Below are positions 765-27,402 of a stretch of 64,000 nucleotides of DNA, in pieces; the first letter of the stretch is position 1, and the number at the start of each line of letters is the position of its first letter. This DNA is from Phoronis australis (lineage: Eukaryota > Animalia > Phoronida). The translations under genes were made by a program, and so were the position numbers. The DNA is taken from assembly GCA_002633005.1 (NCBI GenBank), contig NMRA01000162.1:596304-660303 (forward strand). Direction: 5' to 3'. Below the pieces are notes generated by a model, which saw only the letters and a list, made by a program, of their open reading frames with translations, did no database searches and was not told the DNA's origin.

Positions 765-1363
765 TTAAGGTATGTTGAACTCGCCAGTTTGTGAATTTTT
801 CTTTTTTTTTCGTCGCGCTTTTGCACGCGTCGACCACTCTCTCTCAACGTAACCTTGAACACCCACCGCATATGTCTGGGACTTGGAAGCCGTTGTTGAA
901 GAAACCTTGTTCTCACGTCTTTTAGGCAATGGTGCTTCGTTGTTTTCGGAGACTCTGGCGGATTTCAATTGTCGCTTCAGAGCAGGCTTTACTAGTTCGC
1001 TGACATTGACAGCAAGGGTACTTCCTCGTGCCAGAGAACGTGCACTTGTCTTGTCACATTCGTCCCATTTCTCGTAAATGTTACATTCCGTTTTTAAAGA
1101 CATGCGCACCAGCTGCTCAATACTGTCTTTCAGCACCAAATGTTGATCATCGCCGTCCTCGATGTATAACGTTGGACTATTGTCGCTCACTATTTTCACA
1201 TTTTTTTCTGGGATATAACACTTACTGGGTTGCCTGGAACGGGGCCTGTCTCTCATGTTAGCAATGGAGCGCCTTCTCGTCTTGAACAGAATAATCAGAA
1301 TTCCTGTCAAGATTACCAAGAAGATTGCACCTCCTAATGACGATCCTGTGACAATTGAATCAT
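765..1363 (-). CDS. Terminal exon B of Ig-TSP1 receptor: TM helix plus cytoplasmic tail (distal copy)
   Basis: Phase-1 acceptor ttttggttacag|AT GAT TCA; reads DDSIVTGSSLGGAIFLVILTGILIILF-KTRRR (TM plus stop-transfer), open to TAA at 765-767; clearly paralogous to 14620-15269 (QPS.CYI, SPT, DSIE.LV.MSLKTE.NIYE). Confidence 0.75.
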
Positions 1364-2159
1364 CTGTAACCAAAAGCACACGTCACGCGATTTCTACAAT
1401 TGCATGTGATAAAGACGTTACTTATTTAAAAAATCACCAAATGTTCTAATGGCAGGGATAACTTTTACAGTCATGAAATTGAGGGCCACTTTCTGAGAGC
1501 ACCTACAGGTTGTTCTACATGCCCATGACATTTTATGAGTGCTTGGTCTACCCCTAGATATGCACTAAGCCAACTTTGGTTTTTCAAACACAAGCTTCGT
1601 TTTGCTTTCAAGCTGATTTTGCCAAAAGGGCTTTTTTCTATACTTATTTTTGAAAAAAGCTCTCAGGTTTGCAAGACTAGTAAACTTAGGCACAGTTATG
1701 TTTTTCTGTGAATGTATCTAGCCTTAAGATTCAAAAATACGCTTGGTATTTAAGACAGAGAATTTCAATTTTATGTACTGGCTTTTCAAAGGTGAGAATT
1801 TTTGCGAATATTCAACGGCCTGATTATACCCATTTTAAATAAGGAAAGAACAAAGAATGCAGCATGTGAGTATGCGACCAGTGTGATTTGGTAGTATTGG
1901 AATAGTTTAATACGTACATTAATTTAGATAGTTAAAACTGATGTCAAAATACAAAAATGTCTGCTATACTTCCGCTGTCGTACAGTTTCATAGCGATGGT
2001 AAATAACAACAGACACTGAGAAATTCATTTTTCCATCCAAAAACTTTCAGAAATTTTCGACATCTGCTTTCCTGATGTTAAGAAAAACAACAACGGACTT
2101 AAACCGGCTTGACCATCATGTAGAAGAAAAAACACAGTGTCCACCTGGCCGCTGTACAC

Positions 2160-2570
2160 AGACGTTATTGCATGTTGCGCTTAGTTAATATCCGTCCTTA
2201 CCACGGTTCATGGGTCTCTTCTCTTTTCTGATGTGGATCGAGTCCATATCTTTCTTTTAAGATAATTGACCTCCGTGCCAATGTTAGCCACACACGAACA
2301 GCCAAAGGTCTGGAATTTCTCTAGATAGTCTGTGATTGCAGGTTCATTAACCTCACGTAGTGGCTCTGGTGAAACTTGTTAAAATAAACTGCGTTAACCT
2401 CTTTTTAACGATCCTTGAGTCGACATTTAAAATTTGCAGATATGTTGCTTGTAAATGTTTGGTCACAGGAGCGCAGGGTATATTGTTGACAATACCACTA
2501 GAGTCTGCAGTGTCCCTTTTATCCCTCGGATATATCAAGACACTCCGCATCGTCCTGTGTGGCCACATCG
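2160..2570 (-). mobile_element. Penelope-like element fragment (GIY-YIG endonuclease region), degenerate
   Basis: Minus-strand pieces PRDKRDTADSSGIVNNIPC, FTRAT, AITD, SIHIRKEKRPMNR..DGY.LSA parallel the plus-strand copy beside it. Confidence 0.65.
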
Positions 2571-2574
2571 CCCG

Positions 2575-3082
2575 TTTGATTCCATGCTACATGTACACTT
2601 CACTCCTCGTTTCTGAGACTCTGATCAGAGTGTACAAGAAGTTTGCGATCAAAACAGCGATGAAGCCTCACGCGACCTTGAGGATTGTGTCGGTACATCC
2701 GAAGGGTAAACGTGAAATTGAACACTCTAATGGTCATGCCTACAAAATACCTTGCGCCTACCGTCATCAGACATTACATGCATATGCGACACCTCTAAGA
2801 ATTTTTAATATTACGTCAAGAGACACCAGAAAGAGGGTCAGGCGGTGACTAAATACTTTATTCACAAGAGCTACTAGAATTATGCTTAAGAAATCAGCAA
2901 CCACAGATCATGCAGCTAGAGACAACCATGTTATTGATTGGCCGGGTGTAGCTATCATCGAGAGGGAGGCCAGAGATACTAAAAGAAAAACACGAGAGTC
3001 GACATCCACCAGAAAATGGAGATCATCCATCAACCGTAATGAGGGCGAATATAAATTCAGTGCAACGCACGACATCCTGTGA
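2575..3082 (+). mobile_element. Penelope-like element fragment (GIY-YIG endonuclease region), degenerate
   Basis: KTAMKPHATLR..VHPKGK..YKIPC and KSATTDHAARDNHVIDW..IIERE..RKTRES..INRNEG.Y match the PLE GIY-YIG C-terminal pattern. Confidence 0.75.
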
Positions 3083-5039
3083 ACAGTGCCACCTAGTATG
3101 CATCAAATAAGACGTCATGCATATGTCGAAAATCTCTGCAGGAATTTCACGGTTCTTTGGATGGAAACATGAATTTCTCTGTATCTGTTGGCACAAATCC
3201 ATTTATTTTAGGATTAACATCCAGGTGTTCGGACATTATGCCTGCATTGGTCTTTCTCAATTATCATAACTGGCATTTTATGAAACTGGACGTCGTGTTG
3301 CCTGCCAAATAATTATCGTTTGAGTATCTTTTTCGTTATCTGAAACTTTGTCTCTGGATTGATCGACCCTTATGGTAACAACGATTAACAGTGTCTAATT
3401 CCCTTTTTTCACAGCAGAATAAACGTATGTGGCAATGAAACGTGTGAAACAAAACAAAATGAATAAACACACATGAAGAAGGAATTGTGCAACTTTAAAC
3501 CTCGGAAATCAACCATCAGAAATGGTGCTCACTTTACAAACTTTGCCAGTTGAACGGACAAAGTAATCCAGATGTTTCAGAACTTCATTAATAGATCGGA
3601 TCTTAACAGTCCTCACTACACAGTTTGTGCATCTCCATCCCGCAGCAAAAGTTTGAGATGACAGCCATTCAAGAAAAGAAGCCACTGATCTGGGTCTCTA
3701 TTTGTCGTCTCATTTAAAACGTATATTTGCATTCTTCTAAAAACCTTTGGGCAACCACACCTCTCGACCCACGACCACTCTGACCCACGGCCCACAATCC
3801 TCCTCGACCCAGTCGAAACAGGCTCGGCTTAATCGGAACATGTAGTACGCGTGTGACCTGCAGGACGGACGATTCTGTCCGTGAGCTCAGCTGACTTTTC
3901 CCAGTTTTTGTAAGTAAGAGAATCGATTTGGCAAGTTTGAAATCCAAAAACATAAAGCGCAACGCCACCAAATCAATTCAAAGAGCTGTGTTCAGTAGAA
4001 CAGGGTCATTGTTAGCCTGTCGCGGACTTGTTGAGAGTCACTGCATGCGAACGTCAGGCAATTTGCAAGATTATTGGAACACGACATGTAACGAATTTTA
4101 AATTTGATATAGTAAATATATCATTTGGGATGAATTAGCTACAAAAATATAAAAATTAAGTTTTGTCATTCGCCAGTTTGTAATTATATAACGAATTACT
4201 AAATCGGGTGAAAAAATGGTCTAACCCCTTGTGCGCAACTGTTGAAAATGCCCTATGTTTCCATGGGAATTAAACCACTTTGCGGGCGTTTAAAAATGAA
4301 AATTTGATTGAGTTATACACAACTATCCACTTTGTAATTGAGAATGCCAAAAATAATTCAGAATGACGTATTTTGATACTTTTAAGGAACTTTTGAATAC
4401 ATTTACCAATTGAGACCTATATGGAGGCCTATGTAATTCAAGCACGCAAAAACGCACACCACCCACACATGGGTTCTGTGATAGCTAATGCTCTCGTCTT
4501 TGACCAGATATTGTTATTTCCGTGGACAGCACCTTTTTTAATTCTCGAATTTGCACTTTAGCGAAGGCGCTTTCAACACTTTCACCTGTTTCATACTGCC
4601 ACCAATAGAGGGCGGCAAAGCAGAAAATATGAAAAACATGATCCAAATTGGAAGTATATCGTAATAAAAAATCATCTTAAATTTTATTCAAGATAACTAG
4701 AATTGCTTCGAGCGTTTCTTTAGCGAAATATTGCGTTGTTTACATTAAGCTAAGAAACGGAATGAGGTTCACAAAAATAGGTCACGCTCTGAAGGAAAAT
4801 GGCCAAGCCAGCATGAGCGAGCCGATGTGTTACTTACAACAAAGATATTGTCAAATACCTGAAAAGTGTCAGCGCACTAGATCACTTGGAAAAATGGGAG
4901 TTAATTGGCAATTTGGCACGAATGGGAGTGTGAGAGACAAAGGAACTAGCCAGCCTGTTATAACAAAAGATCTTATGTCCAAAGCACCTTATGTGGCAGT
5001 ATCTAGGTTGTAAGCCAAGGTGTACGTTTGCAGCATCAG

Positions 5040-6430
5040 GAATGCAAAGGATGTTCACCACTCAATCCCAGCTTTACGTCAACTTAGTAACTTTTCATTT
5101 GAAGGTGAGTTACGTAACAATTAATATTTTTTCTCAGAAATCTCACTGTGATTAGTCATACCATCGGAGAATTAGTTTCAGCTGTGTATGAGGTCTGAAA
5201 CAAAAGTTAATATTTGATGGAATGGAATATTCTTTCATCGTTTGATTTTTGACAAGGACTTGTGTTCTAATGCTTACAACTAAGTTACCTATTTCAACTA
5301 GAAAAGTGGTTGCTTGGAAAGCATATGGGATCGGAGATGGAGTGGTTTTGGAGAGTCGTGCTTCTGATTGCAAACCAGTGGAACTAGTGATTGAGGAATG
5401 TCATGTCGAATCCTCATTGAGACCTTTCACTAGTTTCTGCGATCGAAAGACGAAGGTATTCATGTATCCAAAAGATGGCTGTAACAACACTTTTGGCTTT
5501 CAAAACAAACTCAAGCAGCAAGTTAGCATCGGCTAGCATGATAAACAGCCAACAGCGCTTGAAGTTAATCGCGGAGAGATAGTGGGTTGCCAAAGTCACA
5601 GGGATACAAGGTGAAGTTCATGATCTAACAGCATAGTCGTTGAACTCAATTTGGCATCACAAATCCATAAGTTTGACATACAGGTATAACCTTTGTTGTG
5701 CATTTTAGTCACTGACTGTTCCAAGTTGACTTAATGGTTAACATGGAAATGCGCTGTGTGATGTTCTATATTACAACCCAACAAAAAGTGAAGCTGTTGT
5801 GGAACATGCTACTCAAGAGCCTATGCAGTCATGGCTTGGACATTCGCACAAATTTAGGCTGGATTGTTTGACGGGGATTAATGTATCAATCAGACCACTC
5901 AAACAGCACAACTCTCTCACTTATGATCACAGCATTTGGAATATCTAAGCTCATTTTGTGAATTCACAAAACATGGCTACCCATCCAAAAAGCATGGCTC
6001 CTGGTGTTGCATCCAGCTTTGTTACCTTTAAACACTCCTCACACACTCTTCCCTGAGTCTTGCACATGATTCTAAGTCACGTGGGTTTTTAAACTGATTA
6101 TTGGTTGCAAAAGCTGTGTTTGATTTGTATGAAGAGGGATTATTTTATAATTAGGTGTGTGAGTGGTGTTCACGAGTGTTTGACAATTGTTCTTCTGGTA
6201 GCCTGCCAGTGGTCTAGGTAAAATATACTATCTTATTGAGTTTTACATTTGCAGGTGTAAAAATGCAGGCAGCTACTACCCAAACAGCAGGAGAATCATA
6301 CAGCACAATGGGATGGGTTCTGAAGTCAGCATAAAGGTCTGAAATAATGACTGAAAGCGTAAAGATGTTTTTGACTGATGCGTTCAACGAAGGCATGAAA
6401 ACTGGTCAAAAAGCGATCCAATGAGGTGTT
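5040..6430 (+). pseudogene. Decayed, intron-containing transposase-like gene (possibly Sola3-type DNA transposon)
   Basis: Ordered fragments SIPALRQLSNFSFE|gt, VVAWKAYGIGDG, FMYPKDGCNNTF, MGWVLK..MFLTDAFNEGMKTGQKA recall a transposon-associated protein family; superfamily assignment is from memory and unverified. Confidence 0.35.
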
Positions 6431-7269
6431 CTCAACAAAGTCAACAATCATAGAAGTGCTGTTTGAATATCTTGAGCAGTATCCATGTAGATCGTAATCA
6501 TCATTGTTACTGTATTCTTGTTGTGCACTTTATGGTGTGTCTATTGCTATGAAGTAATGTTGCTAGTGAGTTTGATTCCTTGATATTTTCTGTGAAATTA
6601 CTTCTTACGTCAAGTGTCCCTTTAACTGTCATTTCCAGGTTATTTGTATACATTAATATACAGTACAAGCCAAACGTATCCTGACAAAATAACCCGTAAT
6701 TCCTTGCCATGACAGCTGGGACAAAAGTAGAATTCGTGGTCAAAGTTAAGGGAAACTGGAAAGTCAGTATGGTGGCTAAGACATTCTGTAATTAGTTGGG
6801 TAATAGTTATTACCAGTCATTTTTGCCTTAACAGGACTAAACATCAAGTGGGGCAGAGATTTATAGTGTCTGATTGCTTTTGCCTTGTTCTGTATGACAG
6901 TTTGCAAGCATGCGTGTGTAGGCCCATTATGCTGTCATCCTGGTCTTTTTGTCTGGCATCTGCAGCTGCATCTCCAAATCCTTGGTGAATTTGAAATTTT
7001 ACAAATGAGATGACACAAGAGCGTTTTGGGATGTATTTGACTACCACTGGGCCCCTATAGGCAACTTTACTTCTTCATGTTAGTCTCTTTAACTAGCAAG
7101 TGTCTTGACTGATTTTCATCAAATTTCGCAAATTATTTTCAGTTATGGAGACAGCCACGTTTTCCTAATTCTTGGCGTACCTAAATGTAATCTGTACAGA
7201 AACGTTGCCATTGAGATGAGCACGACTGACACTGATTGTTGATTGGACGATATCCTATGGTGCCCTTTA

Positions 7270-7440
7270 ATGGCAGTGCTGTAGGGGTAAAATTAAAGGT
7301 ACTGTAAGTAGGCGCCCAAAGCCCACCGCATCACCTTGAGCACTGAACGTAACTTATGGTGCGTAGGCACTACGTTCAAATGCCAAAAGGTGGTTTGTTG
7401 CGCCTACCTGTGCCTAAGCGCCATTACAGCACTGCCTAAT
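7270..7440. mobile_element. Small palindromic MITE
   Basis: ggcagtgctgta ... tacagcactgcc terminal inverted repeats with further internal inverted matches (taggcgc/gcgccta). Confidence 0.5.
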
Positions 7441-8574
7441 GGCAATTTAGGTTTCCTTTATGTATGCCTCTATATCTACCAAGTTTCTTGATGTATTTTC
7501 GTGCAATATGGTATACTTGTCTTCTTTTGAGGAGACGAGAACAATCTGCTATTTTCGGCTGGATTTAAAATATTCTGTGCCAATAAAGATTATTAGTTCT
7601 GGCAGCAGCCTCTCTGTCCTTGAAATTGCTTGGAGGATAGCTCTGAAATTTTGCTCACGTGTTCCTATTGAGATGATCACGACTGACATGTTTTCTGATG
7701 GATGCAATCACCGAGACGCCCGGAGTGGCAATTTGTTTGTTTATCTGCACCGCAATACTTACAAAGTTCTGCTGATGAATCTGGGTGCAATATTATGTAT
7801 GTGTTACATTATTGAGGAGAGTATGCTTGGCATAAATTCTAGGACATATCTGAGTGCTGTGGCGACTCTAGGGATTCTGTATCAACCAAGTATCTTGATG
7901 TATGGAATATGGCAAGAATGTGACAGCGATTGTCTTGTTTCAGACGAATATACATGTAATGTATGCTGCATCACCTAGAGGTTTTTTATTTTACATGTAT
8001 ATATTACATATCATTAACATCCCTGGAAGCATACCGCCAGAGCACTATCCGTTTTTCCTGTTTTTGTATGGTGTTGACAAAAATGCAGTGTGATGTAGAC
8101 TATGGTTTCATTTTTACTTCTTTTGATCAAAGATCTCGATACCCAAAACTTAACGTTCACAACTAGCTTTAACACCCACACATAATACACATATGCACTA
8201 TAATCAATTTACAGGTGGGAAACTAAAGTGTTCTATCCATAACTCGATGTCAACCATGACCAAAGGCTGCGTTGTATAAATTTCCTGTGTAATAAATACT
8301 GCACTGATGTGTTTTTCTATGTGTTGCAAGTCAGAGTTTCCGTGAGTATTAGACAATAAAACACTTAAGTTCACCGATACCTTACGTAAAATAGTTTGAC
8401 ATTTTAGTAGTCTGCCTGTATTTTAAATTCATAGCACCACTGCAATTGACCCTTTTGAAATTCTTGATCTCTCCCAGTGGTTTACCTCTGATGACCAGAT
8501 TAACCACTGACATTCCTAGACCTATGTAGTATTTTTATGTATATCTCGAATTCATATTGTGTTAGGGATGTTCT

Positions 8575-9985
8575 ATAATCGTCACTCGGGTTCCCTTTTC
8601 TTTAAAAATGAAGTAAATTTTCTTCATTGCACAGTAGACCAGACGACAGAAAAGGAGTCGTAGTGCGCAGCGCCACTGCCGGTCGCCTGGGTTATCGCGG
8701 GAGAGTCTATACTTAGCCATAGTTCCTTTACGATTGCGCCGTGTTCCGAATTTGACACTTGAAATTGGATCTGAGCCCACCCACCATAACACTAAAACTG
8801 CGCATATTTAAATCTTGTTTCTTCCGTATAATTTTAATTACCGGGGTTAATTAATAAACTCAACATTTCCCTACGCTCCTGCTGTTTTATTTTTTCGGCA
8901 GCCAAGGGAGGGGGTGCCGGGACCCCTGGGCGCCCCCTAAATCCGCCTATGAGTACGTCCCTCATTCCTTGTGCTTCAGTCGTCAGTATGTGTTTCAGTC
9001 GGAAGAGGCGCGCCTTCAAGAGGACATTGCAAGGTGCAAACCAATCTGAACAACAATAAGGTAGTATAGATTCCTGTTTATAGTTATAATAGCTATATTC
9101 GTAACCTTTACATGTATTGTACCTGTGGCGGATCTAGGATATCACATGGGGGGGCAACATTTTGTCCGGCTGCCAGCATTTGCCCAAAGTGAACCACAAT
9201 TGTAGATGCGCATAGCACCGTATGGGGGGAGGTCGGGAGGGGGGTTTGCGCGCGTGGATTACCACTACACCACCACGAATTAACTAATCACACACTAAGA
9301 GACCTACTTTTTTGCTATCAATTCTTAACAAATTTGTCGTATTTAAATTAGTCTTCAAATGCCCAAAGTACCAAATTCGTTTTTCGTGTTGGCAATAATG
9401 ACGGGATTGCTTTGGAGATCGTCCTAAGATAAGGTTTGACAAAGAGAGTATTGCGAGTTTCTGAGTGATTCACTAAGGCTTCGATTAAAATTCACATCTT
9501 ACCAGCAGCTTCTGTTTTTTTCATCGTCACTCAGGTTCCATTTTCTTTAAAAAATGAAGTAAATTGTCTTCATTGCACAGTAGAGCAGACGACGGAAAAG
9601 GATTCGTTGTGAGCAGCGCCACTGCCGGTCGCCTGGGATATCGCGGGAGAGCCTATACTTAGCCATAGTTCCGTTATGAATGCGCCGTGTTCAGAATTTG
9701 ACACTTGAAATTGGACTTGAGCCCCCCCCCAACACTAAAACTGCACACATTTAAATCTTTTTTCATCCGTATCATTTTAATTACCGGGGTTAATTAATAA
9801 ACTCAAAATTTCCCTACGCTCTTACTGTTTTATTTTTTGCGGCAGCCAAGGGGGGGGGCCGGGCCCCNNNNNNNNNNNNNNNNNNNNNNNNNNNNNNNNN
9901 NNNNNNNNNNNNNNNNNNNNNNNNNNNNNNNNNNNNNNNNNNNNNNNGCCCCCTGGGCCGCCCTCCTAAATCCGCCTATGTGTAC
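8575..9985. repeat. Two direct copies of a ~400-bp interspersed repeat (~8575-8960 and ~9525-9985, the second containing an 80-N gap); partial inverted third copy at ~58900-59135
   Basis: Shared blocks aaaatgaagtaaatt..cattgcacagtaga, cttagccatagttcc, ttaattaccggggttaattaataaactc, taaatccgcctatg. Confidence 0.8.
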
Positions 9986-10560: not shown

Positions 10561-10784
10561 CGGGACAAGGAATTCCACGAGTGCTTCACTTCAGCTGTCC
10601 ATATCAAACACAAAACTCGATTAATTTACACAAAGCAGAGAGTCAACTAACCATTAGTGATTGTTCTTTCTTCGGGACAAGGAATTCCACGAGTGCTTCA
10701 CTTCAGCTGTCCATATCAAACACAAAACTCGATTAATTTACACAAAGCAGAGAGTCAACTAACCATTAGTGATTGTTCTTTCTT
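10561..10784. repeat. Exact tandem duplication, 2 x 112 bp
   Basis: cgggacaaggaattccacgagtgc...gattgttctttctt starts at 10561 and again at 10673. Confidence 0.9.
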
Positions 10785-12021
10785 CTAGGACCACACACGG
10801 TGCACTGCTCCAGCGAGATCGCAACAAGTTTGCGGTCAACGAACAAAACTGTTCCGAAAAATCCCAGACATCAGTCCTGCGTTGACGGTTCGAGGTCAAG
10901 GACGGTACGGAATTATCAACCTTATGACTATGACATAAAAACCTATGTTTTGAATCTGGGCCATTGTCTGAGGTCGAGACTGAATCTCCTGTCCTGTTCT
11001 TATGCAGTAGAACTCTCTAAATTGGTAATGCTTCATTTGGAATTTTAGAAAAGGTTTAAATTAATTCCGCAATAACGCCTCCAGATAAATCAGACTTTGA
11101 TGAAATATATCAGTGTCACCGGAACCACCTTAGCCAGTTCTACTGTAATTCAATGAGATATCAATTAGAACGTCACAGAAACCACTGAATCTCAATCCAA
11201 AAGCTCCAACATGCAATAGCTTTAGGTGTCTATGACTTGGCATAAAACACAAAAAGTATTCACATGTATAGGATGTGGGAAATCGTGAAATAGTGTTTGT
11301 ATCACTCACTCAAAAATTCTCGAGAAAAATGTTTTTGAATTTTGTGGACATTTTAGGACGTTTCCAGAGTGCATTGTAATTCCCGTCTATCCCCATTCCT
11401 AGGTAATTGATTATTGGCTAATAGATGCTACCATTATAATCTAACCAATCAGAGTACTGTTTTGATGGTTTTTTGCTTGTGAAGTCATTTACAGCACTCG
11501 TTTCGCATATTGGTTTTCAACATGTTGTGATGCTGTTTAGATTGAGGATTTGCTGGGTAACGCGCAAAACTCCAGCAAGTACATGTAATTCAGTTAAGGT
11601 TTTACGTTTAGTCTATTAATGTAAGCCTGCTGGATATTGTACATGTGTGTATAGTGTTTAATTGTTGAACTGTAACGGCTGCTATGTTGTGGTTTCGTGA
11701 TACGCGGGTTCAAGTCCCGTGTGCCAGCCGTATTAACTATTAGGTAACATTTTGAGAACATTGTTTGGTTCCGTTGACAAACTTTAATTATTGTTTGTAG
11801 ATAACCGTCAATTCAAGAATAAATCGATTAAACGAAGCTGACACGTTACACTATCGCCCACACTAATACTGAGGTACCTTTTTACCCCCACTTAAGAAAG
11901 TCTACTTATACCGATGCACCGTATGGGACAGCAACAGTTTCGAGTGCCAATCAGATATACCTAAAAAGCTATGCCACAAAATTTATAGTCCTTGTATTGA
12001 AGAAACATTGAAATATTTCCA

Positions 12022-13464: not shown

Positions 13465-14130
13465 CGAGTAAGTACTTGGGAGCAGATCGCTTGTCCAATA
13501 GTGAACTAATCTCCAGTTTCACTGGTACAAAGGTCTACTAATCATGCGAATCTCAACCTTCTGATGAAGTTTTGTCGGCATTTTACGATACTCACAGATG
13601 CGTCAAATAAATGGCAGCGCTTGGTCTGTCGCACCTAGTTTGTCGGTCTAAAAACATTTGGTTGGGGGTCGTTGCCACCAAACAATCATATTTATGCCGG
13701 TGCATTGAATCACGTGCAGCCAAAGGCACTTAATGGCTGAAAAGCAGTTTTCGACATCTTGCCTCTCCTTTTCCGAAATAAAATTGGTGAGATTTTGCTT
13801 AAAAATGCCTCGAAATGAGATTCTTGGCGAGCGGCAAAATTATGTCCGGACGTCACCGATCGTGTTTCATGTTTTTGAAATTTTATTAAACCATCATTCG
13901 CGATCAACAATGAGTTAATTAGATTTATTTTATTTCACGGTGAAAGCGTGTGATAGTGTTTGCCAAAAAAGTGGGATGTCAATCTTGTGCAAACGTAACA
14001 ACATTAATGAAAACGCAAGGATAATGCTTTTAGCGTACATTCAGTGACGGATGGAGGAATTGTGTTAGGACAAAGGCCCGTGGAAGCAATGAGTTTTAGG
14101 AGTATTTTTGGGCCATTGAGCATTCTTTGA
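13465..14130 (+). repeat. Interspersed repeat, second diverged copy at ~32425-33035
   Basis: Shared ttttgtcggcatt..cgatactcaca..tgcgtcaaata, tcacgtgca, tcgcgatcaa, gcaaacgta, gaattgtgtt.ggacaa. Confidence 0.6.
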
Positions 14131-14619
14131 AGCCCGATTTTGCCAAGCCCAAGAAACCTAAACAAGGTGCATAAGTTCCCGGCAGGTCGATGTTGACGGT
14201 AGGTAGGCTTGCGCATAAAAAGGTCGCAGAAACGAAGTACAGCACAGCCATTGAATTATTAGCCTTCGTCCGGTCTGCCTCTGGTCTGACTAGGCGTGAC
14301 CGTAACCAAGGACAGACCGGAGAGTGAGGCTTGAGTCGACCTTCACAACTAGCGTGTGCGCAAGCGTGATTGTGCCCGGAGCTTACCGCGAGTCAGGCGT
14401 GAACGAAGCACGAAGGGCTGTTAGCCAGGCGTGATTCAGATACCCTTAGGCGGCGAGAAAGATAATACATTTATGTAACTAGGAAAGTGTAATGCAAATG
14501 GACAGGCATAACGAAATAACCACTACAAAATATGTATCTACCCCGACATCTTAAAATACGACAAATTATCACTTAACGTTCCCCAGGCTTGGTAAATCGA
14601 TGCGAACTTTTTGCTCAAG

Positions 14620-15269
14620 TCACCTTGCTGACCGAGTCCTTTTAGTTTTAACTCTTCTCTTTGGCCAAGTATTCCCCGTATCTGTCGAACTCTTCATTAT
14701 TGTGATTTGTTTGCAACCTTTCATTGTTTTCATTCTCGATTTCGAGTACGACTCTTTCGTTGCAGAATCTTTCTTTTTCACCTCACAGGCCCCAGACCCA
14801 AAACTGTTTTTTGATGACCGCTGATCTTCATCTTTTTTTACTGATGATCGTGGCGTTTTGACTTCGGAGTCTGGTGAACATTTCAAATGACCATGTGAAG
14901 CAGACTCTATCAGTTCATCAATATTGACAGGCACGTTGCTGCCTGGTGTCTGGGACCTATCAGATTTCTTGTTAATTGGCGGCTCCTCGTAAATGTTGCC
15001 TTCTGTTTTCAGAGACATTTTCACTAGTAGCTCAATACTGTCCATCAGCACCATTTCTTGTCCATCGTCTTTTTTGAAGCAATATGTTGGACTGGGTTCG
15101 TTCGATTGCTTTAGAAAACTTTCTGCAATGTAACACGGACTCGGTTGTTTGTAAGGGGTCTTGATGGAGTTTGAACGCCTTCTGATCTTGAAGAAAACGA
15201 TCAGAACTCCGGTAAAGATGACCAGGAAAAGACCTCCGCCAAAGGATGGCACTATGATCACCGCAACAT
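14620..15269 (-). CDS. Terminal exon A of Ig-TSP1 receptor: TM helix plus cytoplasmic tail (proximal copy)
   Basis: Phase-1 acceptor ttttttgttttag|AT GTT GCG, in frame with the TSP1 donor (G+AT = Asp); DVAVIIVPSFGGGLFLVIFTGVLIVFF-KIRRR; open to TGA at 14620-14622. Confidence 0.85.
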
Positions 15270-16107
15270 CTAAAACAAAAAACATGACTAATGTGTTCTA
15301 GGGATATTGGTTAACTCCCGTTAATTAAGAATACTTACGTAACACGCGATATTGGTTTTGACTTTGCCAAACGTGAATTTGAAAAATTGTGCTGTAACTA
15401 GCTCAGTCTCGCTTTCTGACAAGTTTCTTGGACCAAACTAACGTGTCAGTGTTTCTCGTAACAAAAACATACGACAAACGTAGTACACTTAAAGGAGCAT
15501 GCCACCCAAAAAACAACCTAGTTTGTATCAATGAATTTAGATCGAGTAGTTCTAGTCCCTAACGACACGTATGGTTGCGTTACCTGACACCTGACGGCAG
15601 ACGGAGGTGTTGAAATTATCCAATGACGTCATCGGTTTCAACGCAGTCTGTTCAGCAGTTCACAACACGGGTTACTAGTGTCAGCTTATCGCTTGAAGAC
15701 ATTGTTTAACACCAATAAATCATCAAACTCCGAGTTCTTATAAAAACGTGTTGTTTTATTTCGCTTTTACGGATATATTGGTATTTGGACACACCGTAGC
15801 CTACAAAGTTCGGCAGGCCAATAAGGTCCCGTAGTAGGAGTTTGGGGTCTGTTCGGAGATAATTTCGAAGTACATTCTGTGAGATACAGACAAGAAGACC
15901 TAGATCCCAGTTGTTTAGACTTGCGATTTTTTGAGTTCTTAACACAAAACGCTTGTTATCCTGGCCAGTGGCTCGGAGCCCGATCAGGCCCGTCGCGGCC
16001 GGCCGGATTGACTCATTATCCCGGCCTGTAGCTTGGAAACTGATCAGACATCACGAACATGAACCAGCCAAAGTTCAGTGGAAACTAAACTTCCGTCTAA
16101 AAAAGTA

Positions 16108-19100
16108 CAGCACACATCACGAATTTTTGTCCGACCGGTCGGAAATTGGTCGGCGACCAGCCGTCGACCGGTCGTCTAGCCGACCAATAGCCGACCAACA
16201 ACGGTCGGCTAGGAGCCGTCTGCTCAGTCGCCTCTGTGGTCGGCAATTGGGTCCGCTAAGTGGTCGCCTAGCGTAGACGACCAATTCGGATTAAGTATGT
16301 CCTTGGTCGGCAATTATCATTTTATGACTTAGCGGGTGAACTTTGGACAAACAAACATTTATCTGTTCGCTGTTCGTTTACCAGTGGCAACTCCGGTCTT
16401 GACATCGGTTTATCAACTTTTGTTCAACTATTGAAAGGAGGTAAAATCGAATCAACCTACAAATACGAAGTGCGTGACATTACACCAGCCTAAAACCTCA
16501 TGTTGAATTAATGACAGCGTGGTAAAATCAAACGTTAAGTGATATCGCGGAAGCATAATTTCTAACTTTAGATATGAGACTTTTTATACAATATATTATG
16601 CATAAAAACAAGCACGGAATTTGAAATTTACAGTAAAATCGCATAGAAAACAGAATACAACACTGGATATTTTACGACCTCAAGTGTTTTCATCCCGCGG
16701 AATACTCAACAAGCAGCACGCATTTGCGCTCATCCGTTATTGCTCTAGATCATCACGCTGTATATTGCACTTTACCACAGATAATAATTGTTCATTTCTG
16801 TATAATTTGTTAATATCTTGGTATAGCAATAGAACCCAAGTTTATTTTAGGAACAACGTAAACAATGGTTTGAACATAGCGCCGATATTTATCATGGGCG
16901 CATGAAAACGGAAGACTGTGATCGGTTTATAGTGTCGTCCATCGTCCATCATCATTCTGATATTGTCACTATCGCAGCAAAAAATCCTTTCGAAGCTAGA
17001 GCTTTCCTATCTAGCCAGCTAGCTGTGTGAAGACTATTTTCAAAATACAGCAAGGTGCCACTGCGTATTGAGCTCAAACAGACCTCGAAAATTCACAGAG
17101 CCCGGATAGTTACGCTGGTCACTTCGTCGAAAAGCTTGTATCAACATGAGCTGAAGACCGGCAGGTGTGCATGCAAACTTGGAAGTCAATTGGCATTCAG
17201 TTGCCGGTTACGGCCGTTTAAGCGATAATCATCCGACGTCATCTTCTTGCGTAATTCTCTGCCTTTTGTAACGAAAAAACGTATGTCGTCGTTTTGAAAG
17301 AGTTTATTCGTGACACGCGCCACTTTCAAAATGTTTTCGACATCTCCCATTAGATGGGGACAACATTTCAGCAAAATTTGTTCTAAAATTCAGTTCACTG
17401 ATATCAAAATTCCACAAACATATAATAAAGTGAAACCAACTCTGATCATTTGTCGTGACGTTTACGCAACCTCGAGAGAGAACGTTTGATTGAAGAATTT
17501 GGGGAAAAGAAACTGGCTAATAGGTGACGCAATATTTCATTGCGTCGAAAGTCGACGAAAAAGCTCACACTATAATTTTAGCAGCAGAATAATTGCAAAA
17601 AGCTAATTTTTGCAACGCTGGTAAATAATTTATATTACTCTAGGAAGACTTCATTCGGTCAGTTTTTGCCCACAACGGCACAAATTTGTATATTTAATTT
17701 AGTAATCAGCTTCGCACCAAGGTTAGAGCCTTCCGCGTCCTTTGGCGTAAGAACACAATACTTGACGTTTCGCGTATACTCCAAGGAATAAAACTTTGAA
17801 AAAATTATCTTCGGGGTAACCTGGCACATGTAATCCTAAAAAAGTAGTCTGTGTTTTCACGTAGAGCGTAAAAATTACTTACCCAGTGATTCAAAAAGAA
17901 CACCTTCGTAAACGAAAACGCACATAATTTTCAGCTCTATTACACTGGTTGAAAACAACTTCTATAAGTCTATTGCATCGGATTCTAGTGATCACCAGGG
18001 CCCGGTCTCCAATCTTTTTACTCGAAATGGAACTCGAAATTAGGTTTGTCATTTTCTACTCTACTTTTGGGCGAACTCAAGATAAGTGTCTATTATTCTA
18101 TGCTTGAGTACACAATAACTTACGTAGATAATTTATTGCCCTTAGTTCACAGTTTGTAAACCCAATATTAAAGCAATAATTTCGAGTTTGAACTCGAAAT
18201 TTCGAGTTTTTACTCTAGTTTGTAGCACAAATATAAGGGTCTTCAAGGGTAAACTTGAACTAGAAACTCCTATGCATAAACTATAATGTATTCGAGCACA
18301 GTCTGATAACCAATTGTCTTAAGTTCGCACAAAAGGAGCAGAGAAATTTCCAAAAAATAGTTTCGAGTTCGTTTCGAGTACAAAGATTAGAGACCGGGCC
18401 CTGGGCAAGTCAAAACTCTTAAGGAGGCGCAATTTCACCGAAACCTTTGGCATGAATCAGTGATATAAAAATGGAATTAGACCGACTTTAATTCATCAGC
18501 AATGTAGACACAACAGTTACAGACACTAACTGCGTTTGTTAAAGTCTTGTGACAATGATAAAAATAATTGTTTCTACTATGATTGAAAAATGTTTTACTC
18601 TGATGAGGTATGATGCAATATGCATGTCTAATATGCAGATCGGCAGTTGCAAAAATTGTTACTGGGTTTAATGAATCCGTTTGTTATGAACCACTGCAAA
18701 AGTATTTTTACTAATTGTACATTCGAAGCACGCCTCATTCGAATAAAACATACACATGCTTGATGATCCTGGGAGTACAGGCATGAATGAGGATACGTAG
18801 TTGTTAAGCCATAGATGATAATAAGGCTTACATAATATCACACTGAGCCATCTACACCAGGCATATACAAAGGATACAGTATTTCAAAACAATCCACAAC
18901 TACCAATTTTCATAGTCATAACTGCTCATTTTTCATAGTATTACTAAATCAGGAACACCTAGATTTATATAAGAAGTTTGATGCTACACAACCTGCTCTC
19001 CCACATTTATGGGAGGCCTAATTTGAAACATTTAACGGCATATTTTTTCTATGCAAGATTAAAACCAAGCAAAACATGTTAACTCTCCAGGACCAAAAAT

Positions 19101-21624
19101 AAATATCTCAAAACCAGAAATTTTACCTAAGCAGGAATTAAAACAATCCAATACATTGAGATTGTTTTCACACAGAAGACCAAAAAACAAATGAAGACCA
19201 AAAAACAAATGAAGACCAAAATTCACCACGTCAACACTGAAAATTTATCACATCAGCACCTATAATTTATCAAGTGAGGACAAAAAATTCTTCACTTTAG
19301 GATCAAAATAAAATACGACCGAACTGAAAACTTAATAAGTCAGGTTCAAAAACTTACCACGTCAGTGACTTTTCACGCCAGAACACCACGTCACCATCCC
19401 CAAGCATAGATCCTTCAAAGTGATAATGTCCGTACTATACGTATAAACAAGGGCTAAATGTTCAACCTCTTGCCGACGAAATGCGGTTGAATTTCTTTCG
19501 TCTAATCCACGTTTTACAATAGATGCCAAGTATACGTACACACTGGATTGTCATCATTGCATAATGGGTGATCACGTAGTCTCCGGGCATGAAAACAATT
19601 CTCTCCTGGCGTGATAAGTTTTCTGACACAACAAGTCCTGGTTGCCAATTGTTTTTGATTCTACAGATTTCAATTCCTGAATAGAAAATGTGTGTTCTGG
19701 ATTTTTCCGCTTCATCTTTCCATTCAGCTAACTAGTGTACAGCACAGTGTTTTTACTATCCTGTGGCGGCTCCACTGCAACGAATCCCTTCTGGTACAAC
19801 CTTCCGTAAATGACATTCGTACTTTGCACATTTCTTCGGGGTAACAGTTTTCCAAGAGCTATAAATTTATTGGGCAAGTTTCTGTTTGGTATTCGGTTTT
19901 ATTTTCTTTCTCAGGTAGTCCTTGAGCTCAGGCTCTGAATGTTTTGTATACGCAGCTCTTTCTTTACGCAGATACCGTTTTCCGCCTGTGGACACCGACT
20001 CGCTGAATTCATCAACCAAACATTTATTTTTGAAAATGCCCTCAAAAGTGTACTTTTTTAAAACACCGTGTTGACCATAGTCGTAAGTGTAGTAAAGTGA
20101 AATGAACAAATTTGTACACACTGCTCAAAACACTTATGTGGACATACGAAAACGCCAACGTCTCTGTCTTACAACGCTGCGAGTGATTGGCATTTCATTT
20201 CGTGTTGGAAAGATTTTTAAGACTGAGCACCTTTTTAAAAATAGTATTTTTTCATACAGCTGAGAACAGAAGAATTATTCTGCGATTTTAGGACTGAAAC
20301 GGAATCAAATCTCGAGTGGTGACTCATTAGAATGTGCAAAACTCGGGGAGGCGGGGTGGTGGCGATACAAGCATGATGTATATATATTTTTTATTTACAT
20401 TTTGTAGTTGCCACTTCCCATTCAGCGTCACTTACTACCTAAGGTAGTAAGATCATACGCTATAAATATCACCAGACGTTTTCCTTCTCAAAGCAGCACC
20501 TTCATGTATTTTCAATATTTTTTTGCCATCGCAATCGCTTTACCAAAGATTCACGCACATATGCCGCGTAGAAACAAATACCTCTTCACCACGTATTTAC
20601 ATCTTCCCGTTCACAATTGTTTTATTTTACATAATTTGTCAATATGTTGTTGACAAAAAATATTTATTTTTGGAACAACGTGAACGGCCAACTGATAGGC
20701 GTCTACGTGTACATGTAACTAGCCCAGATTTTAACGTCACCGATAAATGAAAACGGAATGCGCAAAGCTGCAATTGGCTGTAGCCTCAAAAGTGGCCATT
20801 CTGTGTTAGATATCACCTTCTTAATTCATGGAAATCGTAACCATAGTATGATTTTGAAGTTAGAGCCATCAAAGTCCGTGGGTTTAGGGCATAGATCTAC
20901 TGGACCGTGAATTTCGCGACTGTACTTACTGCAGGGGTCAATACTATGAAAATAAAATCCCCGAAGTGTGTAACAACTCACTCACTTATACATCATCTTG
21001 GGCGCGTGATAGGAGTCCAGTGAATAATTTAAAAAACGCAAAAATGATGCAGTTTGGCGTTACACAAACAAAATCAATTGTGGGCGAAGACTGCGAAAAA
21101 TAGCCGCGTTTACAAAATGACTACAGCGTTGTATTGATCGGGAAGCAACCAATCTAATACAATTTGTTAACTTCACGAGTCAAATTAAAGATCAAATGTA
21201 AAGAAAACTTTCACGTTTTTCATCCAGAACTTGTTGCATTGTGCATCATCCAATATTTACTATTACCGCTTGCCTTCAAACTTCGAATTAGTGGTGTTAC
21301 ACAACCGACGTGAACTCATGTAACCGAAACAGCAAAACGAGGTTAATTTATTTGACCCTGTGCTAAGACGAATATGCACCGACACGCGAAGTGGTATGAG
21401 CCTGACAACGTATTACGCAACTGCTACTCTAGCCTAAAAATAGCAGCTGACCAGCTGGTCGGCTGATGGCCGGTCGGCAAAAGGGTCGGCTGAAGGGTCG
21501 GCTGGGGAGTCGCCTTAAGAGTCGGCACTGCGGGCGGCTGCCGGTCGGCTAATTTGCCGACCGGTCGACGGCCAGTCGTCGACCAATTTCCTACCGGGCG
21601 GACAAAAATTCGTGATGTGTGCTG
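16108..21624. mobile_element. TA-flanked TIR DNA element (Tc1/mariner-like target site), no intact ORF seen
   Basis: TA|cagcacacatcacgaatttttgtccg.ccggt ... ggacaaaaattcgtgatgtgtgctg|TA; the host Kolobok sequence is contiguous in the sister copy near 29431 (aaaagactatactag); second copy at 44811-47680. Confidence 0.85.
17999..18400. mobile_element. PIF/Harbinger-type MITE
   Basis: cag|ggcccggtctc..aatcttt ... aaagatt.gagaccgggcc|ctg (CWG target); the empty site gatcaccagggcaagtc is present in the sister element near 46652. Confidence 0.85.
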
Positions 21625-24600
21625 TACTATACTAGCGAGCCAAAGTGACGTGCACGTGATTATGTTGGCGAATCAGCCACGAAACTGCAAATCTACTTAC
21701 TCGATCGTCGGGGGACGCGAATTCATGTTCCGCTTTGGCCACAGCAACGCGGGTCAGGGCAAAAGTTGTACATTGACAATCATTATTTGAGTAAGGTAAA
21801 TGTAAATAAAGATTCCCCTAACACTTGGCCGTGAGATAGAAATCGAGTTGTTTCACAACAGTTTCTGCCAGCAAACACTAAATTAGCATGAGCTCGCGCG
21901 GCCTCGGTGTCCCATTAATTAGTTTTATAGCAGCTAAAGACGGTAACGCAGTGATTTATTCCTTGCTGGCTTCTCAAATCATTTGCACTCACGAACACTC
22001 CAAAGGCATTACAAATTGCATCTAATGAGACAGATTTTGTTTCAGTTTGGTTAGGGTGAGAATAATTCATTTTTAAACAGAACGCTCAGTAATAAACGCC
22101 ATCATGATATCTCGCAATCCCCGGCCGACTTGGACGAGCTAGAGCTCACCAGTCCCGACTTTGCAGGTGGATCGTTAAGTTTTACAGGCTATCGATTCGA
22201 ACAGGAATACAGTGATTAAGAAACAATAGAGCGGCGCCGTGAACAAGCTCAGAGACCGAACGGAACGTATGGAGTTATTTGTCAGGCACTTTCGACGTCT
22301 GCAGGCCACAGACGCGGAGATGTTTCACTGCCTCATACTTGGTATTTACAGCGTATATTTCATTCTTCGCTACCGTGAGCCACTTCCTAAGCATTTCGGA
22401 CTCTCGGTGAAGTGACGATTTACCCGCTTTCCTCGCAGCTGCTTAGTTCGGACAAGCGAGAACGATGCACCGCAACATAGCGGCAATCACTCTGCATATG
22501 AACCACTGACGTCGCTAGCGTCGTTTCTCACCTTCCTCACAGGTTAACGCGACACCTCTTGGCAAGGTAAGGTCGACCGTATGCGAGGCGATGTGGATAT
22601 AGGTCGATTAAGATGGCAAAAAGACTAATTAAATCGGGTGGCATTCTCCTTTAAGACCAGGCAAAAATCCATACAGGGGTGATAAACCCTATGTGACGGA
22701 TTTGGATCATATTCTGCATTTTTGTTTACTTTCTTATGGTAATTACTAAAATGCACTTTAAACAAATTCTATCGCTTTAGGTAGCTTAAAATTCGGGTAC
22801 CTCACTTTTCACTGAAAACCACTATCAGAACTTGCCCCAATAATCACAGTTTTTGTGACATTGTAAGTAATTACAGAAGCTACTAGAAAATGAACTAGCT
22901 TCTGTTTTGTATGAAGTCATCCATTGTCTTACTAAAATGAAAAATAAATGTGTCAAGTTGCACCTTAAATTCCACATTTCGGGTTTGAAGGGTCATGTGT
23001 TCATACAAGCAGAAAACATGGATAACTTGCCCAGGTTTGAATGAGTCAATCTCAGCTGAAGCCAAATTTTACACTTTCAAACTTTATTGTGGGTTTGATC
23101 TATCTTAGTAGAATAGATATTTGGCATCAAAACCACCGGCAAACACATGTCTTCATATAATAATGAGCAATTGTTCGCAGCCACCTCAGCCAAAGTGAGC
23201 ACTTGTGACAATAAATAATAGTCATCGACAATGTTGACTTTTGAGATTAAAAAGTGCTCAAAAGGCTGTTAAATTATTGAGCTTACTTCTTAGAAAATAA
23301 AATTCAATAAAATTAGTATTTGTTTTTTTTTTACTGTGAATTACCATTTTGATGAAAATCCCTTCAGGTGTCTCTGATATCACTGAAGAAAACATGGCTG
23401 ATGAGGTGGTGGAAGTAGTTAATATAGTGTGTTCGTGGGCATAATCCTTCAAATCTGGTTTATGGAGCTTCAAAGGAATCTGGAACCATGCAGCAAGCAA
23501 TTGAAGCACTAACTGATTGCAGAAAGTCCATAGCAAGCCATTTGAAATATGTTAAAGTCACCGACCTAGTCCCGTTCAGTGACAGTGCTGAAACTGAAAG
23601 TGGCAGCTGATTCTTGCCAGGGTCAGAGTGGGCTTGTTTACAACAGTTTGCCCCCCAGTTTGTGGAAATCGTCGATCTCATCATGTTATCAAATAGAGGC
23701 CAAGTAAAAGTAAGATATGTGCCCACCTTCAACATCAGAAAGGCTCTAAGCCCAAGGCCAAGCTTGAGTTTGGAATGTAAGTGGAAATACAGTCATCAAA
23801 GAATTTCTGGAAGAACAGAATGTATCGATTCCAGTTGGGTCAAATAAGTTGTGCTGCAGGTCATCAATACTCTATACCTGTTGATAACGACTTTAATATG
23901 TTTGCTTTCTCAACTAGATTCTTACTGCAGTCGCCAGGAAGGGCACGACCCTATGAAGTAAAGCGACACTCGAGTACTAGAGTAATTTTAGTAACTTCTT
24001 CCAGTACTGACTTGTATTAGTAAAATATTCACTTTATCTCAATATTGAGGATTTGTCGAAATACATTCCATTTTATGAATACGCATGTGTAAGAAGTGGA
24101 AACTTGGTGTCCATTATCAAAAGATTTAATCGAGCCCTTGTCTCTTAGACACCAATTTCTCGTCTAATTCACCTGCAGTTGGTCACATTGCTCTATCCGT
24201 AGGGAAAAGGCTATTTATGGAAAATATAATTCTTGTGTTTACGGATTAACTTTCATACAATTGTAATATTTACAGGCATTTTTTTCAAGTGGAAACGAGG
24301 GTGACCAACCATCATTCTGGCTGCCCACGCCTTTGCCAAAGATCCATAAGTCGAATCAGTTTCTCACTGCTGCATCTGATGGAAGAGTCAACCCTGTTAG
24401 GACCCATCTTCTAACTGACACCGATGAATTTGCCGAAAGGTCCTAGCGATATTACAAACAGAAAGCCAGCAAATCATTATCTGTGACTCATGAATGTATT
24501 GCTCCTTGTCATAGGGATGTTCTGAAGAATGTCTCTCATCTCAGCATATCAAATATTTTCCCGTTTAGCAGCACTCAATCATTCTGGGAAACTCGCACAG

Positions 24601-27116
24601 TTTGATGCCTTTGGAATGAAACGAATCGCTGAGGAAAACCATCGATTTGAACTGTGACAAACGATTGTTGAGTCAATGGAATTGCCGCAGTAGCACATTT
24701 CCAGTATACAAGACTCAGAAACATTTGAAATACAGTATCTCAAAAGGAGACAAACAAAATGCTATTTCCATTTCGTGATGTGTCATCTGTGCTGACTAAA
24801 GGTGTCTCATTGTGCACCTAATTTGCTCGCATTTTGTAAATGTGACCACATTTGTTCTTTTCTATTCACTTGATTTATGGCGTGTAATTTGCCTGTGTCC
24901 TATATCAGCCTCAATATCGTATTACTGTTCTCTAAACTACATTGGTGCTTGTTTAATGTTTGGCTATCGTATTGTTTTTGCTACATAAGTACAGTATAAC
25001 CTGCTCTGCTGCATATCTGTCTAACATAATAAACAATATTTTAAATCAGGACAGTTTTTAAATATTGCCCAACTTTGTTCCAAAATCTCTTTGCAGGATT
25101 ACCCAAGTTCACCTATATGCAGTCTGAATGTTTGTGTGTTTTATTTTCTTTTTGCTGCACATGCATTGTCTTATGATTTTTCAATGAAGTAGCTGACACT
25201 ACATGTACATGTATTAGTCTCGAGACTTCTGAATTTTTGGAGTCTGACTGATGGTAAGCACCAAACACCATTGCATACCCATACTAAACTCGGGCGGATC
25301 CAGGATTTTTAGTTGTGGGTCATGGCACAGAATTTCGCCACATCCGCGGGCCCACCCTAAAATCTAGGGATGCAGGGGTCTCGCAATTTTGAGTTTGTGG
25401 ACCTTACTACTAAGAAAATCCGTTAAAGGGGGTTTGTTCAAGGCCAATGCATTGTGCATTCGCCCCCGGAGCCCCCTGGGTGCGCGAAAAATGCTAGTCA
25501 GCAATTCACACCCCGAACTGACAAATGGTATCTGGGAGAATTTTAGGGGGGCATGGCCCCCTCCCGGAATCCACCATTGAAACTGTGATAGATGCAGAAA
25601 ACATCTAAACTGATTTTTCTGCTATCTTGCGTGTGAAATACTCGGTTTCCTGTTTTTTCATGAAAATGTCTACGAACCTTCCGCAAATACATCATTCTAT
25701 GCGTTGTCGGTAAAAACTAAAATAACATTGGTATCCATAATGCAAGAGTATTCAGACATCCATATGCACATCTGGGCGTGTGCTGTTCGGGGACTTCTCG
25801 AATGAGAAGCGTAAGAAAAGTTATTCAACAACGCCAATTTCACCGGTAGTCGACTGTCCTCACTATATCTGTTTTTCTAACCTCATTTAACTGCATCTAT
25901 CCCATACCATTTCAATATATCTCTTTTTTATGACTAACTACTTTGCTGTATGATTTGTTCGGTATCGGGTTTGGTGATATACACTGTATGGAGATGCAGT
26001 TGTCTACTTCCGGCGCAATACACCTATTATTGTTTTTATAAAATTCGTTGAACTGAGATTCGTCAGGACGCGATCAACCGACTTCGAGAAAATTAGAAAA
26101 CTAAATTTGAATCAGACCCACACATTAAAATTTTAGAATGTGAGTTTGCAGTTAGGTATAACTGAAGACTTACTTTATAGATTTTTTACTCAAGCATAAT
26201 GCATTTTGAAACGGTGAGTACATGCACATGCTATTGACAGCGTTATCGTCACGGTCAAATGAAACCAACGTGCCTTTTTGTGCTTCTTATTCTTTTCAGT
26301 AAAATAACAAAATTATAGCTCTCTTGATATGTTCGATCGCCTATTTTAAGATTTCAAAACAGTATTTTGAATCCTCGCATACATTTGTAACTATGCAGAC
26401 ATTGGCTGGTTGCACAATTTTGGTGAGGTGCCCCACTTCTAGAGCCCGATGCGGTATGAAGAATGGTGATTGCCTAGACTTTTGTTGGTTTTATTTCATA
26501 GAGCTAAGATCAATCTAAACACTGGTTGTAGTTTTGTTGTTTTAGATTTGGCTTTAGCTGAGATATTTAGGCAGGAAGTAGGGCAATTTTCAACATTTTG
26601 GAATCACCACAAACTAGCTAAACTGGTAGCCCTCAAAAACGGCTAAGATGTAACTGAAACCGCGATATTTTCTACGACTGGCAAGTTGAAAGACACCTCA
26701 ATTCAGTGATAAACTTGAAGTGTTTCATTTTGCATTATTGTTCTCAAGGTAAGTTCGCAAAAAGTGGAAAAAGTAGCTGTAACGAGGCTTGGAATTGGCA
26801 GAAAAAAACACGTTCCCATAGCAACCACAAGGTGGCGCACACAAAACAAAAATCAATGTTGGTATGAATGTTGAGGCATCAACCCCTACCATCATGCAAA
26901 AAATCGAGGAAATCCGTGACATAGCTTGTATCACTTTTTGCCTGGTCCATTCGTGGACGTGCTCTTAAGTTCTTTTAAAAACAAATTTAAACCGACGTTC
27001 CGGTAATGGTATGTGGTCTACATCAAAAGCTTGGCGTTTGCTATAAAAGTGTGGCTCTCTGAAGCATGGAGTCATGTCTTTGTTGACAACAATTTTTTTC
27101 GAGTTATCATACTTAC

Positions 27117-27296
27117 CCAAGCACCTTGTTTCTGCAGAACAGGTCTTCACCTCACGACCTTGACCCCAGCAGTAATTTCCTCCATAATAAGGAACTGGGT
27201 CGTCACAAGTTCGGTTACGGAAGACACTACCGGTACCAGAATCGCAACTGGCGTTACATTTGCTCCAGGTAGCCCACTCCGACCACCCACCATCAA
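27117..27296 (-). CDS. Thrombospondin type-1 (TSR) domain exon of the receptor
   Basis: 180 bp, ttacattag|..|gtaagt, phase 1-1; VDGGWSEWATWSKCNASCDSGTGSVFRNRTCDDPVPYYGGNYCWGQGREVKTCSAETRCL with WxxWxxWxxC, RxRxC and six Cys. Largely missed by the ORF track. Confidence 0.95.
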
Positions 27297-27402
27297 CTAA
27301 TGTAATAAAGGATGATAAGGTTACAACTTACAACTTCACTTTGGCAGATGTCAGATTGTTTGTAAACCGTTTACCAACATTCTGACATCTGCCAAATTGT
27401 AT

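Follow-up and report, generated by a model that had tools for sequence, protein, structure and literature searches.

Why would a gene with a single ectodomain carry two large exons that each encode a transmembrane (TM) helix and a long tail? The question is raised by a 64,000-nucleotide stretch of Phoronis australis DNA (GenBank assembly GCA_002633005.1, contig NMRA01000162.1, positions 596,304 to 660,303; hereafter the window, in whose coordinates all positions are given). Its minus strand holds five immunoglobulin (Ig)-like exons, then a TSP1 exon, then two homologous TM-plus-tail exons, here called A and B. The window DNA is animal-like, with ∼40% GC and introns rich in repeats. A preliminary description, made from the sequence alone, had read the locus as one ectodomain with two signalling tails. 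Both exons are indeed intact and constrained, and the junction of TSP1 with A (27117>15269) is found in RNA, but neither the switch nor the junction of TSP1 with B (27117>1363) was observed. We consider it reasonably probable that B serves the same receptor gene as an alternative last exon in minor, restricted use.

Exons A and B and their transcripts

When the TSP1 donor (GTAAGT, phase 1) is joined to A or to B, each of which begins after a TAG/CAG acceptor, the frame passes through an aspartate at the junction (RCL-D-VAV in A, RCL-D-DSI in B) and runs to a single terminal stop, confirming the coordinates, the phase-1 junction, the end of TSP1 and the two intact terminal exons first described. 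Counted from the first full Ig1 codon (acceptor 38091), the joined open reading frames (ORFs) encode 843 residues with A and 826 with B; lengths of 844 and 827 had been given, and the difference of one residue probably reflects the split codon. No open frames in the window are longer than the two that contain A and B (225 and 205 codons), and each exon has one uncharged 19-residue hydrophobic segment.

The two exons share 40% amino acid identity overall and 48% across the first 135–139 residues, so the earlier characterization of them as strongly diverged fits mainly the distal ∼80 residues. The motifs previously listed as shared (QPS.CYI.E, SPT, and VL.DSIE.LV.MSLKTE.NIYE) are present in the alignment. 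A six-frame search with A retrieves B at E = 1.7e-30, and their DNA is 64% identical over 439 nt that begin in the acceptor pyrimidine tract and end near codon 135, the flanks beyond showing no homology; this identity and the lack of flanking homology rule out alleles or haplotigs. As expected of tandem last exons, A and B are homologous, have the same strand and phase, intact acceptors and their own stops, and lie downstream of shared exons. Six-frame profiles built from the gene's own exons found no further Ig, TSP1 or third tail exon in 1364-27116 and only one ectodomain in the window, and none of 93 minus-strand ORFs (≥38 residues) between A and B matched Pfam at E≤0.01, in agreement with the earlier statement that no Ig or TSP1 exon separates them. 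With no exons of the shared type between the duplicates, the locus reads as one gene and not two, although an 80-N assembly gap, which looks short, is still present.

Three raw stranded RNA-seq runs (X1–X3), chosen by species label, were read to ∼18–19% each and mapped twice, at likeness thresholds of 90 and 98, with joints and loose ends reported from three reads up. The 15269/27117 joint (GT-AG, minus strand) was carried by 36 reads with 20 starts in X1, 44 reads with 29 starts in X2, and none in X3; another 29 and 34 reads, whose loose ends lie at 27297, ran on into the end of Ig5. X3 had no real depth on TSP1 or A, so the gene is off there. Depth on A was 61 in X1 and 55 in X2, fell to 7.5 and 6.2 in 14186-14623, and on the sense strand past A was 1.7 and 0.2 in 13989-14495 and 0 in 13482-13988. 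No onward splice from A was listed, nor was there a loose end on its 3′ side among those shown (the smallest having 13 and 18 reads, at a depth of ∼60). Because depth tapers out within ∼200 nt of the stop and no onward splice was listed, A is a terminal exon with a short untranslated region (UTR), and a CATAAA hexamer is its likely poly(A) signal. Onward splicing from a donor-like site at 14623 was rejected, as there was no large loose end there and depth runs on into the UTR. Ig5 is thus spliced to TSP1 and TSP1 to A, A is the last exon, and the gene is expressed in two of the three samples. The term mutually exclusive last exons, used at first, does not apply in the strict sense defined in PMC8373072: with A terminal, the choice is one of alternative last exon and poly(A) site. 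A fourth data set, X4 (contigs whose RNA status was guessed), covered none of B, A and TSP1 and was set aside. A search of sequencing runs with exon B listed no RNA run, a result that weighs in neither direction.

B itself (807-1313, on A's strand) had a depth of 1.09 in X1 (553 letters, ∼4 reads, 1.8% of A); these reads were sense-only, and sense depth in 1821-3341, upstream of B, was 0. In the bin 300-806, sense depth was 1.07 in X1 and 0.58 in X2, but this bin also includes a repeat. On the 3′ side of B there are variant poly(A) hexamers only, and too few reads fall on B to place cleavage.

Nonsynonymous (dN) and synonymous (dS) divergence were computed pairwise between A and B by the Nei-Gojobori method, with a bootstrapped confidence interval (CI). 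The dS of 0.93, halved, corresponds to ∼0.46 substitutions per site in each lineage since duplication. The dN/dS ratio was 0.44 over 133 core codons (CI 0.27–0.70), 0.57 over all 191 codons, and 0.97 over 58 distal codons, where the alignment is doubtful. The core has accumulated 144 substitutions in 410 aligned nt, yet its gaps amount to one of 9 nt and one of 3 nt; as a control, repeat copies from the window, compared in four pairs, gave 0.04–0.10 gaps per substitution, with 42 of 66 gaps not multiples of 3. In simulations of neutral evolution, B's 198 open codons survived with a frequency of 0.001 at 0.46 substitutions per site, indels excluded. The alignment thus indicates that both frames have been kept by long-term selection, and because the gaps preserve the frame and neutral survival is so low, B would appear to have been constrained for nearly the whole time since duplication.

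We propose a type-I receptor gene (five Ig-like domains, TSP1 and likely upstream mucin exons) whose main end is TSP1 spliced to A. The phase-1 donor at 27117 normally takes A's acceptor, as the junction reads show, and the RNA would be cleaved soon after A's stop, at a site suggested by the fall in depth and the weak CATAAA signal. Where A's acceptor and its weak poly(A) signal are skipped, transcription would continue 13 kb further and splicing from that donor would use B's acceptor, presumably in cells, at stages or under conditions that are poorly represented in the samples. The swap would give the same ectodomain a second TM helix and tail, and because the proximal core is shared and only the distal ∼80 residues differ, the likely effect would be to adjust partner binding, sorting or turnover without inverting the signal.

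Several observations weigh against this use of B. The reads cover ∼19% of each run, and tissues are not stated; in 807-1313, B had a depth of 0 in X2, where A had 55, and of 0 in X3. The chance of finding no B reads in X2 would be 0.009 if B were used at 5% of A and 0.15 if at 2%. The ∼4 reads on B in X1 may represent 2–4 fragments, accepted at 90% likeness, and could come from read-through or from a paralogous locus. No TSP1>B read was seen, where ∼1 was expected, the 26.5-kb span exceeds one mapped stretch, and a joint is reported from at least three reads; likewise, there was no loose end at 27117 among the 24 of 94 shown (the smallest having 13 reads in X1 and 18 in X2). The tail searches found no orthologue for a conservation test. 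The dN/dS comparison of A with B suggested in the preliminary description came out not near 1 for the core, but a pairwise ratio is not assignable to B's branch, and 29% of bootstraps give a value of at least 0.5, as expected if A alone were constrained.

Alternative accounts of exon B

It is rather unlikely that B is a recently silenced relic that worked through most of its past, either as an alternative exon or as the end of a tandem paralog with a deleted ectodomain, and is now transcribed by read-through only. Such a relic would fit a depth that reaches at most ∼2% of A in a single run and is 0 in the other two, its acceptor is poorer in pyrimidines than that of A (11 versus 14 of 20), and the locus does gain and lose local duplicates, among them truncated copies of mucin-like mini-exons near 39700 and 41500. 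However, Ig5, which is spliced, has only 9 pyrimidines of 20, placing B's acceptor within the range of those in use, and any loss must have been very recent: in the simulation above, the open frame survived with a frequency of 0.045–0.30 at 0.05 substitutions per site and of 0.001–0.10 at 0.1, compared with the ∼0.46 that each lineage has accumulated since duplication.

The assembly gap between A and B bears on a different account, in which B would close a second gene, a tandem paralog whose ectodomain exons dropped out of the assembly at 9868-9947, making A and B the ends of ordinary tandem genes. The N run falls within a repeat family represented at least three times in the window, so that a misjoin between repeat copies is possible, and the N gaps suggest a short-read assembly. 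The sequences on its two sides, however, are neighbouring halves of a single copy of that repeat, and the corresponding halves run together without a break in a sister copy 1 kb away (8578-8962); because of this, the gap is probably short, most likely hiding just a handful of G/C bases. The ectodomain exons known here extend over 11 kb, and the 8.5 kb from the gap to B contain no exon remnant. Depth on A was also similar at 90% and 98% likeness, so nothing points to expression of a closely related paralog of A. We therefore regard a hidden second gene as quite improbable.

Also improbable is a bolder version of the tail switch, in which a lineage-specific invertebrate mucin-Ig5-TSP1 receptor without known relatives would change, in rare cells or after a stimulus, between two anciently diverged TM-plus-tail exons of ∼200 residues whose distal halves bind different partners with different or even opposite outputs, acting as a paired receptor within one gene through motifs other than the immunoreceptor tyrosine-based inhibitory and activation motifs (ITIM and ITAM). 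The preliminary description had called the two tails functionally like paired receptors, a likeness that the tails do not bear out. Neither contains an ITIM ([SIVL]xYxx[ILV]) or the YxxL/I of an ITAM half, patterns that are vertebrate-derived and may miss invertebrate motifs, neither TM helix has a charged residue, and their proximal tyrosine sites are shared.

Finally, it is very improbable that B is driven by an internal promoter with a tiny 5′ exon to encode a separate TM adaptor with almost no ectodomain: although ten ATG…GTRAG phase-1 mini-exon candidates lie between A and B, and the weak Atlas neighbours of tail A include the TM adaptors SCIMP and LIME1 (0.83, leads only), such short candidates are expected by chance, a joint into 1363 is absent among the 15 of 29 joints shown, and no in-frame Met precedes the TM helix in the open frame of B.

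Ectodomain, tails and surrounding sequence

The Ig1–Ig5 and TSP1 exons each have a length divisible by three, phase-1 ends and GT-AG boundaries (Table 1). Pfam finds C2-set Ig domains in four of the five Ig exons, with the curated cut-off passed by Ig1 alone. The remaining exon, Ig4 (32356-32018, minus strand), aligns with the other Ig exons despite having one Cys and no Pfam match, and appears to be an Ig-like domain without a disulfide. Upstream of Ig1 are three S/T-rich mini-exons absent from the preliminary description (42869-40440, minus strand); they sit in a local tandem duplication, together with the truncated relic copies mentioned above, and could yield a mucin segment of variable length. 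No signal-peptide exon was found upstream of Ig1, up to position 64000. Past the TSP1 donor the reading frame continues uninterrupted through ∼50 codons of intron (27116-26968, minus strand), so that a secreted form is possible in principle.

Table 1. Features of the receptor locus, in window coordinates.
Feature	Positions	Strand	Support
Terminal exon B: TM helix and ∼168-residue tail, intact, near-silent in the runs examined	765..1363	−	
Assembly gap of 80 N, in the G/C-rich end of one repeat copy	9868..9947		
CATAAA, sole poly(A)-signal variant within 420 nt of A's stop	14470..14475	−	Hexamer scan and fall in depth
Terminal exon A: TM helix and ∼185-residue tail, dominant 3′ end	14620..15269	−	15269/27117 joint reads; depth 61/55
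TSP1 exon, final ectodomain exon, phase-1 donor	27117..27296	−	Pfam TSP_1 E = 5.4e-8; expressed in X1 and X2
Ig5 exon, spliced to TSP1	28055..28378	−	Pfam ig/C2-set E ∼9e-4
Ig4 exon, degenerate (one Cys, no Pfam match)	32018..32356	−	
Ig3 exon	34457..34801	−	C2-set_2 E = 0.014; Atlas neighbours C2-set, 0.94–0.95
Ig2 exon	36583..36930	−	C2-set_2 E = 0.0017 (below cut-off); 30% identity with Ig3
Ig1 exon, C2-set-like	37744..38091	−	Pfam C2-set_2 E = 4.8e-6
S/T-rich mini-exon, phase 1-1, tandem duplicate of 41644..41742	40440..40538	−	Predicted
S/T-rich mini-exon, phase 1-1	41644..41742	−	Predicted
S/T-rich (mucin-like) mini-exon, phase 1-1, acceptor 42869 or 42866	42738..42869	−	Predicted gene part

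The two tails have in common a basic juxtamembrane stop-transfer stretch, three proximal tyrosine sites and the DSIE...MSLKTE segment, and differ in their distal ∼80 residues; neither has a Pfam match above cut-off. AlphaFold, run on tail A with the two-sequence alignment, returned a mean predicted local distance difference test (pLDDT) score of 48.6, which is low confidence, with a TM helix at residues 9-32, weak helices at 75-86 and 117-120, and a mostly disordered tail; the DSIE...MSLKTE segment may form a short helix, again at low confidence. One of the shared tyrosines is variable in A, with 35 of 83 and 34 of 61 reads carrying Y62C, and is for that reason probably dispensable. The four single nucleotide polymorphisms listed in exon A (14844, 14889, 14931 and 15083) are all nonsynonymous (S142T, H127D, P113S and Y62C, respectively), which is within chance, yet agrees with the tail being weakly constrained. 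A basic cluster closes each tail (14700-14620 and 830-765, minus strand; 18 and 14 K/R in the last 60 residues) although their distal sequences barely align, and these clusters are possibly lipid-binding or similar to nuclear localization signals.

Searches for relatives of the tails retrieved no homolog among 6205 candidates, which were longer proteins, in a word-index search with the alignment of A and B, none at E≤0.001 among 1.84 billion representatives with full HMMER, and none among six candidates with the A core alone. The Ig alignment found one generic Ig/FN3 protein of 24% identity among 7995 candidates, and the Ig profile weakly matched the structures of SYG-2, Rst and KIRREL1 (E = 0.001–0.013). 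Atlas neighbours were generic C2-set domains for Ig3 and weak TM-juxtamembrane look-alikes only for tail A. On these comparisons the receptor is an orphan, with no relative detected for either tail and generic Ig matches only.

Elsewhere in the window, a ∼2.9-kb repeat occurs twice with 86–92% identity, in the TSP1-A intron (16106-19030, with an inverted segment at 17995-18404) and upstream of the mucin exons (44809-47682). An exact 113-bp tandem duplication at 10561-10785 is possibly an assembly artefact. On the minus strand, 59400-62812 holds broken tyrosine-recombinase-like pieces (DUF3504 E = 1.5e-10 and weak Phage_integrase), which we take to be of the Crypton type, and a P2RX7_C-like piece; these are probably decayed transposons.

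Comparison with known systems

The order of Ig, TSP1 and TM segments recalls UNC5, whose tail carries ZU5, UPA and death domains. Unlike UNC5 or nephrin-KIRREL, this receptor has no ZU5, death or FN3 domain detectable by Pfam, and it is not a member of either group. The exon 17 cluster of Dscam1 is likewise a set of duplicated alternative exons in an invertebrate Ig receptor and reportedly encodes the TM segment; its exons, however, are internal and mutually exclusive and lead into a common downstream tail, whereas A is terminal. Docking or selector complementarity was sought by comparing the first 1.1 kb past the TSP1 donor with ∼0.8-kb stretches beside A and B, and over these regions nothing longer than 11 nt was found.

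Paired receptors such as CEACAM1/3, Siglec-5/14, KIR and LILR resemble the present locus in combining the same or similar ectodomains with different tails (PMC2832619); they are, however, separate genes with near-identical ligand-binding domains and opposite motifs, an ITIM against an ITAM or a charged TM residue, whereas the window has a single ectodomain and neither tail bears such motifs. CD155 alpha and delta also have a common ectodomain with differing tails (PMC10455395).

The closest class is that of tandem-duplicated alternative last exons, of which the locus is an arrangement of a known kind in an orphan receptor, with no new mechanism; membership hangs on a single point, the TSP1>B junction. 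Among human events derived from tandem exon duplication, 77 of 236 are C-terminal and involve alternative poly(A) use, with NECTIN2 and LAMP2 named as examples (PMC8373072), and a TM helix is encoded by almost half of such genes (PMC9741552). An invertebrate example of C-terminal substitution is insect serpin-1 (PMC10513286). The swapped region here, at ∼200–215 residues, is near the upper size reported for the class (just over 250 residues). No published invertebrate Ig/TSP1 receptor with alternative tails was found in the open-access literature, supplements excluded. Exon structures of receptors predicted from genomes often disagree with cloned mRNAs (PMC5856374), and the locus holds a lesson for annotation: an exon with strong signs of long-term selection can amount to ∼2% or less in bulk RNA, so that standard gene models would drop it.

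NECTIN2, like the present gene, is an Ig-superfamily receptor in which a tandem-duplicated C-terminal region including the TM segment is swapped (PMC8373072). Its swap involves several exons and PDZ-binding ends, whereas here each alternative is one large exon, and no sequence relationship between the two was detected beyond weak C2-set Ig matches. In LAMP2, a triple 3′ tandem duplication (PMC8373072), isoforms A, B and C (human exons 9a, 9b and 9c) join one lumenal domain to last exons that differ in TM segment and cytosolic tail, and one of them is tissue-restricted, LAMP2C being almost undetectable outside four tissues (PMC10549195). The tails of LAMP2 are ∼12 residues long and all three are proven; here, in a protein with no homology to LAMP2, the tails are ∼170–185 residues with tyrosine sites, the ectodomain is of Ig and TSP1 type, and use of B is unproven. 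If B is used, the locus would be a clean invertebrate tail swap of the LAMP2/NECTIN2 type with unusually long tails, and comparison of A with B would separate the residues on which the tail depends (the tyrosines common to both and the DSIE helix) from those that may vary.

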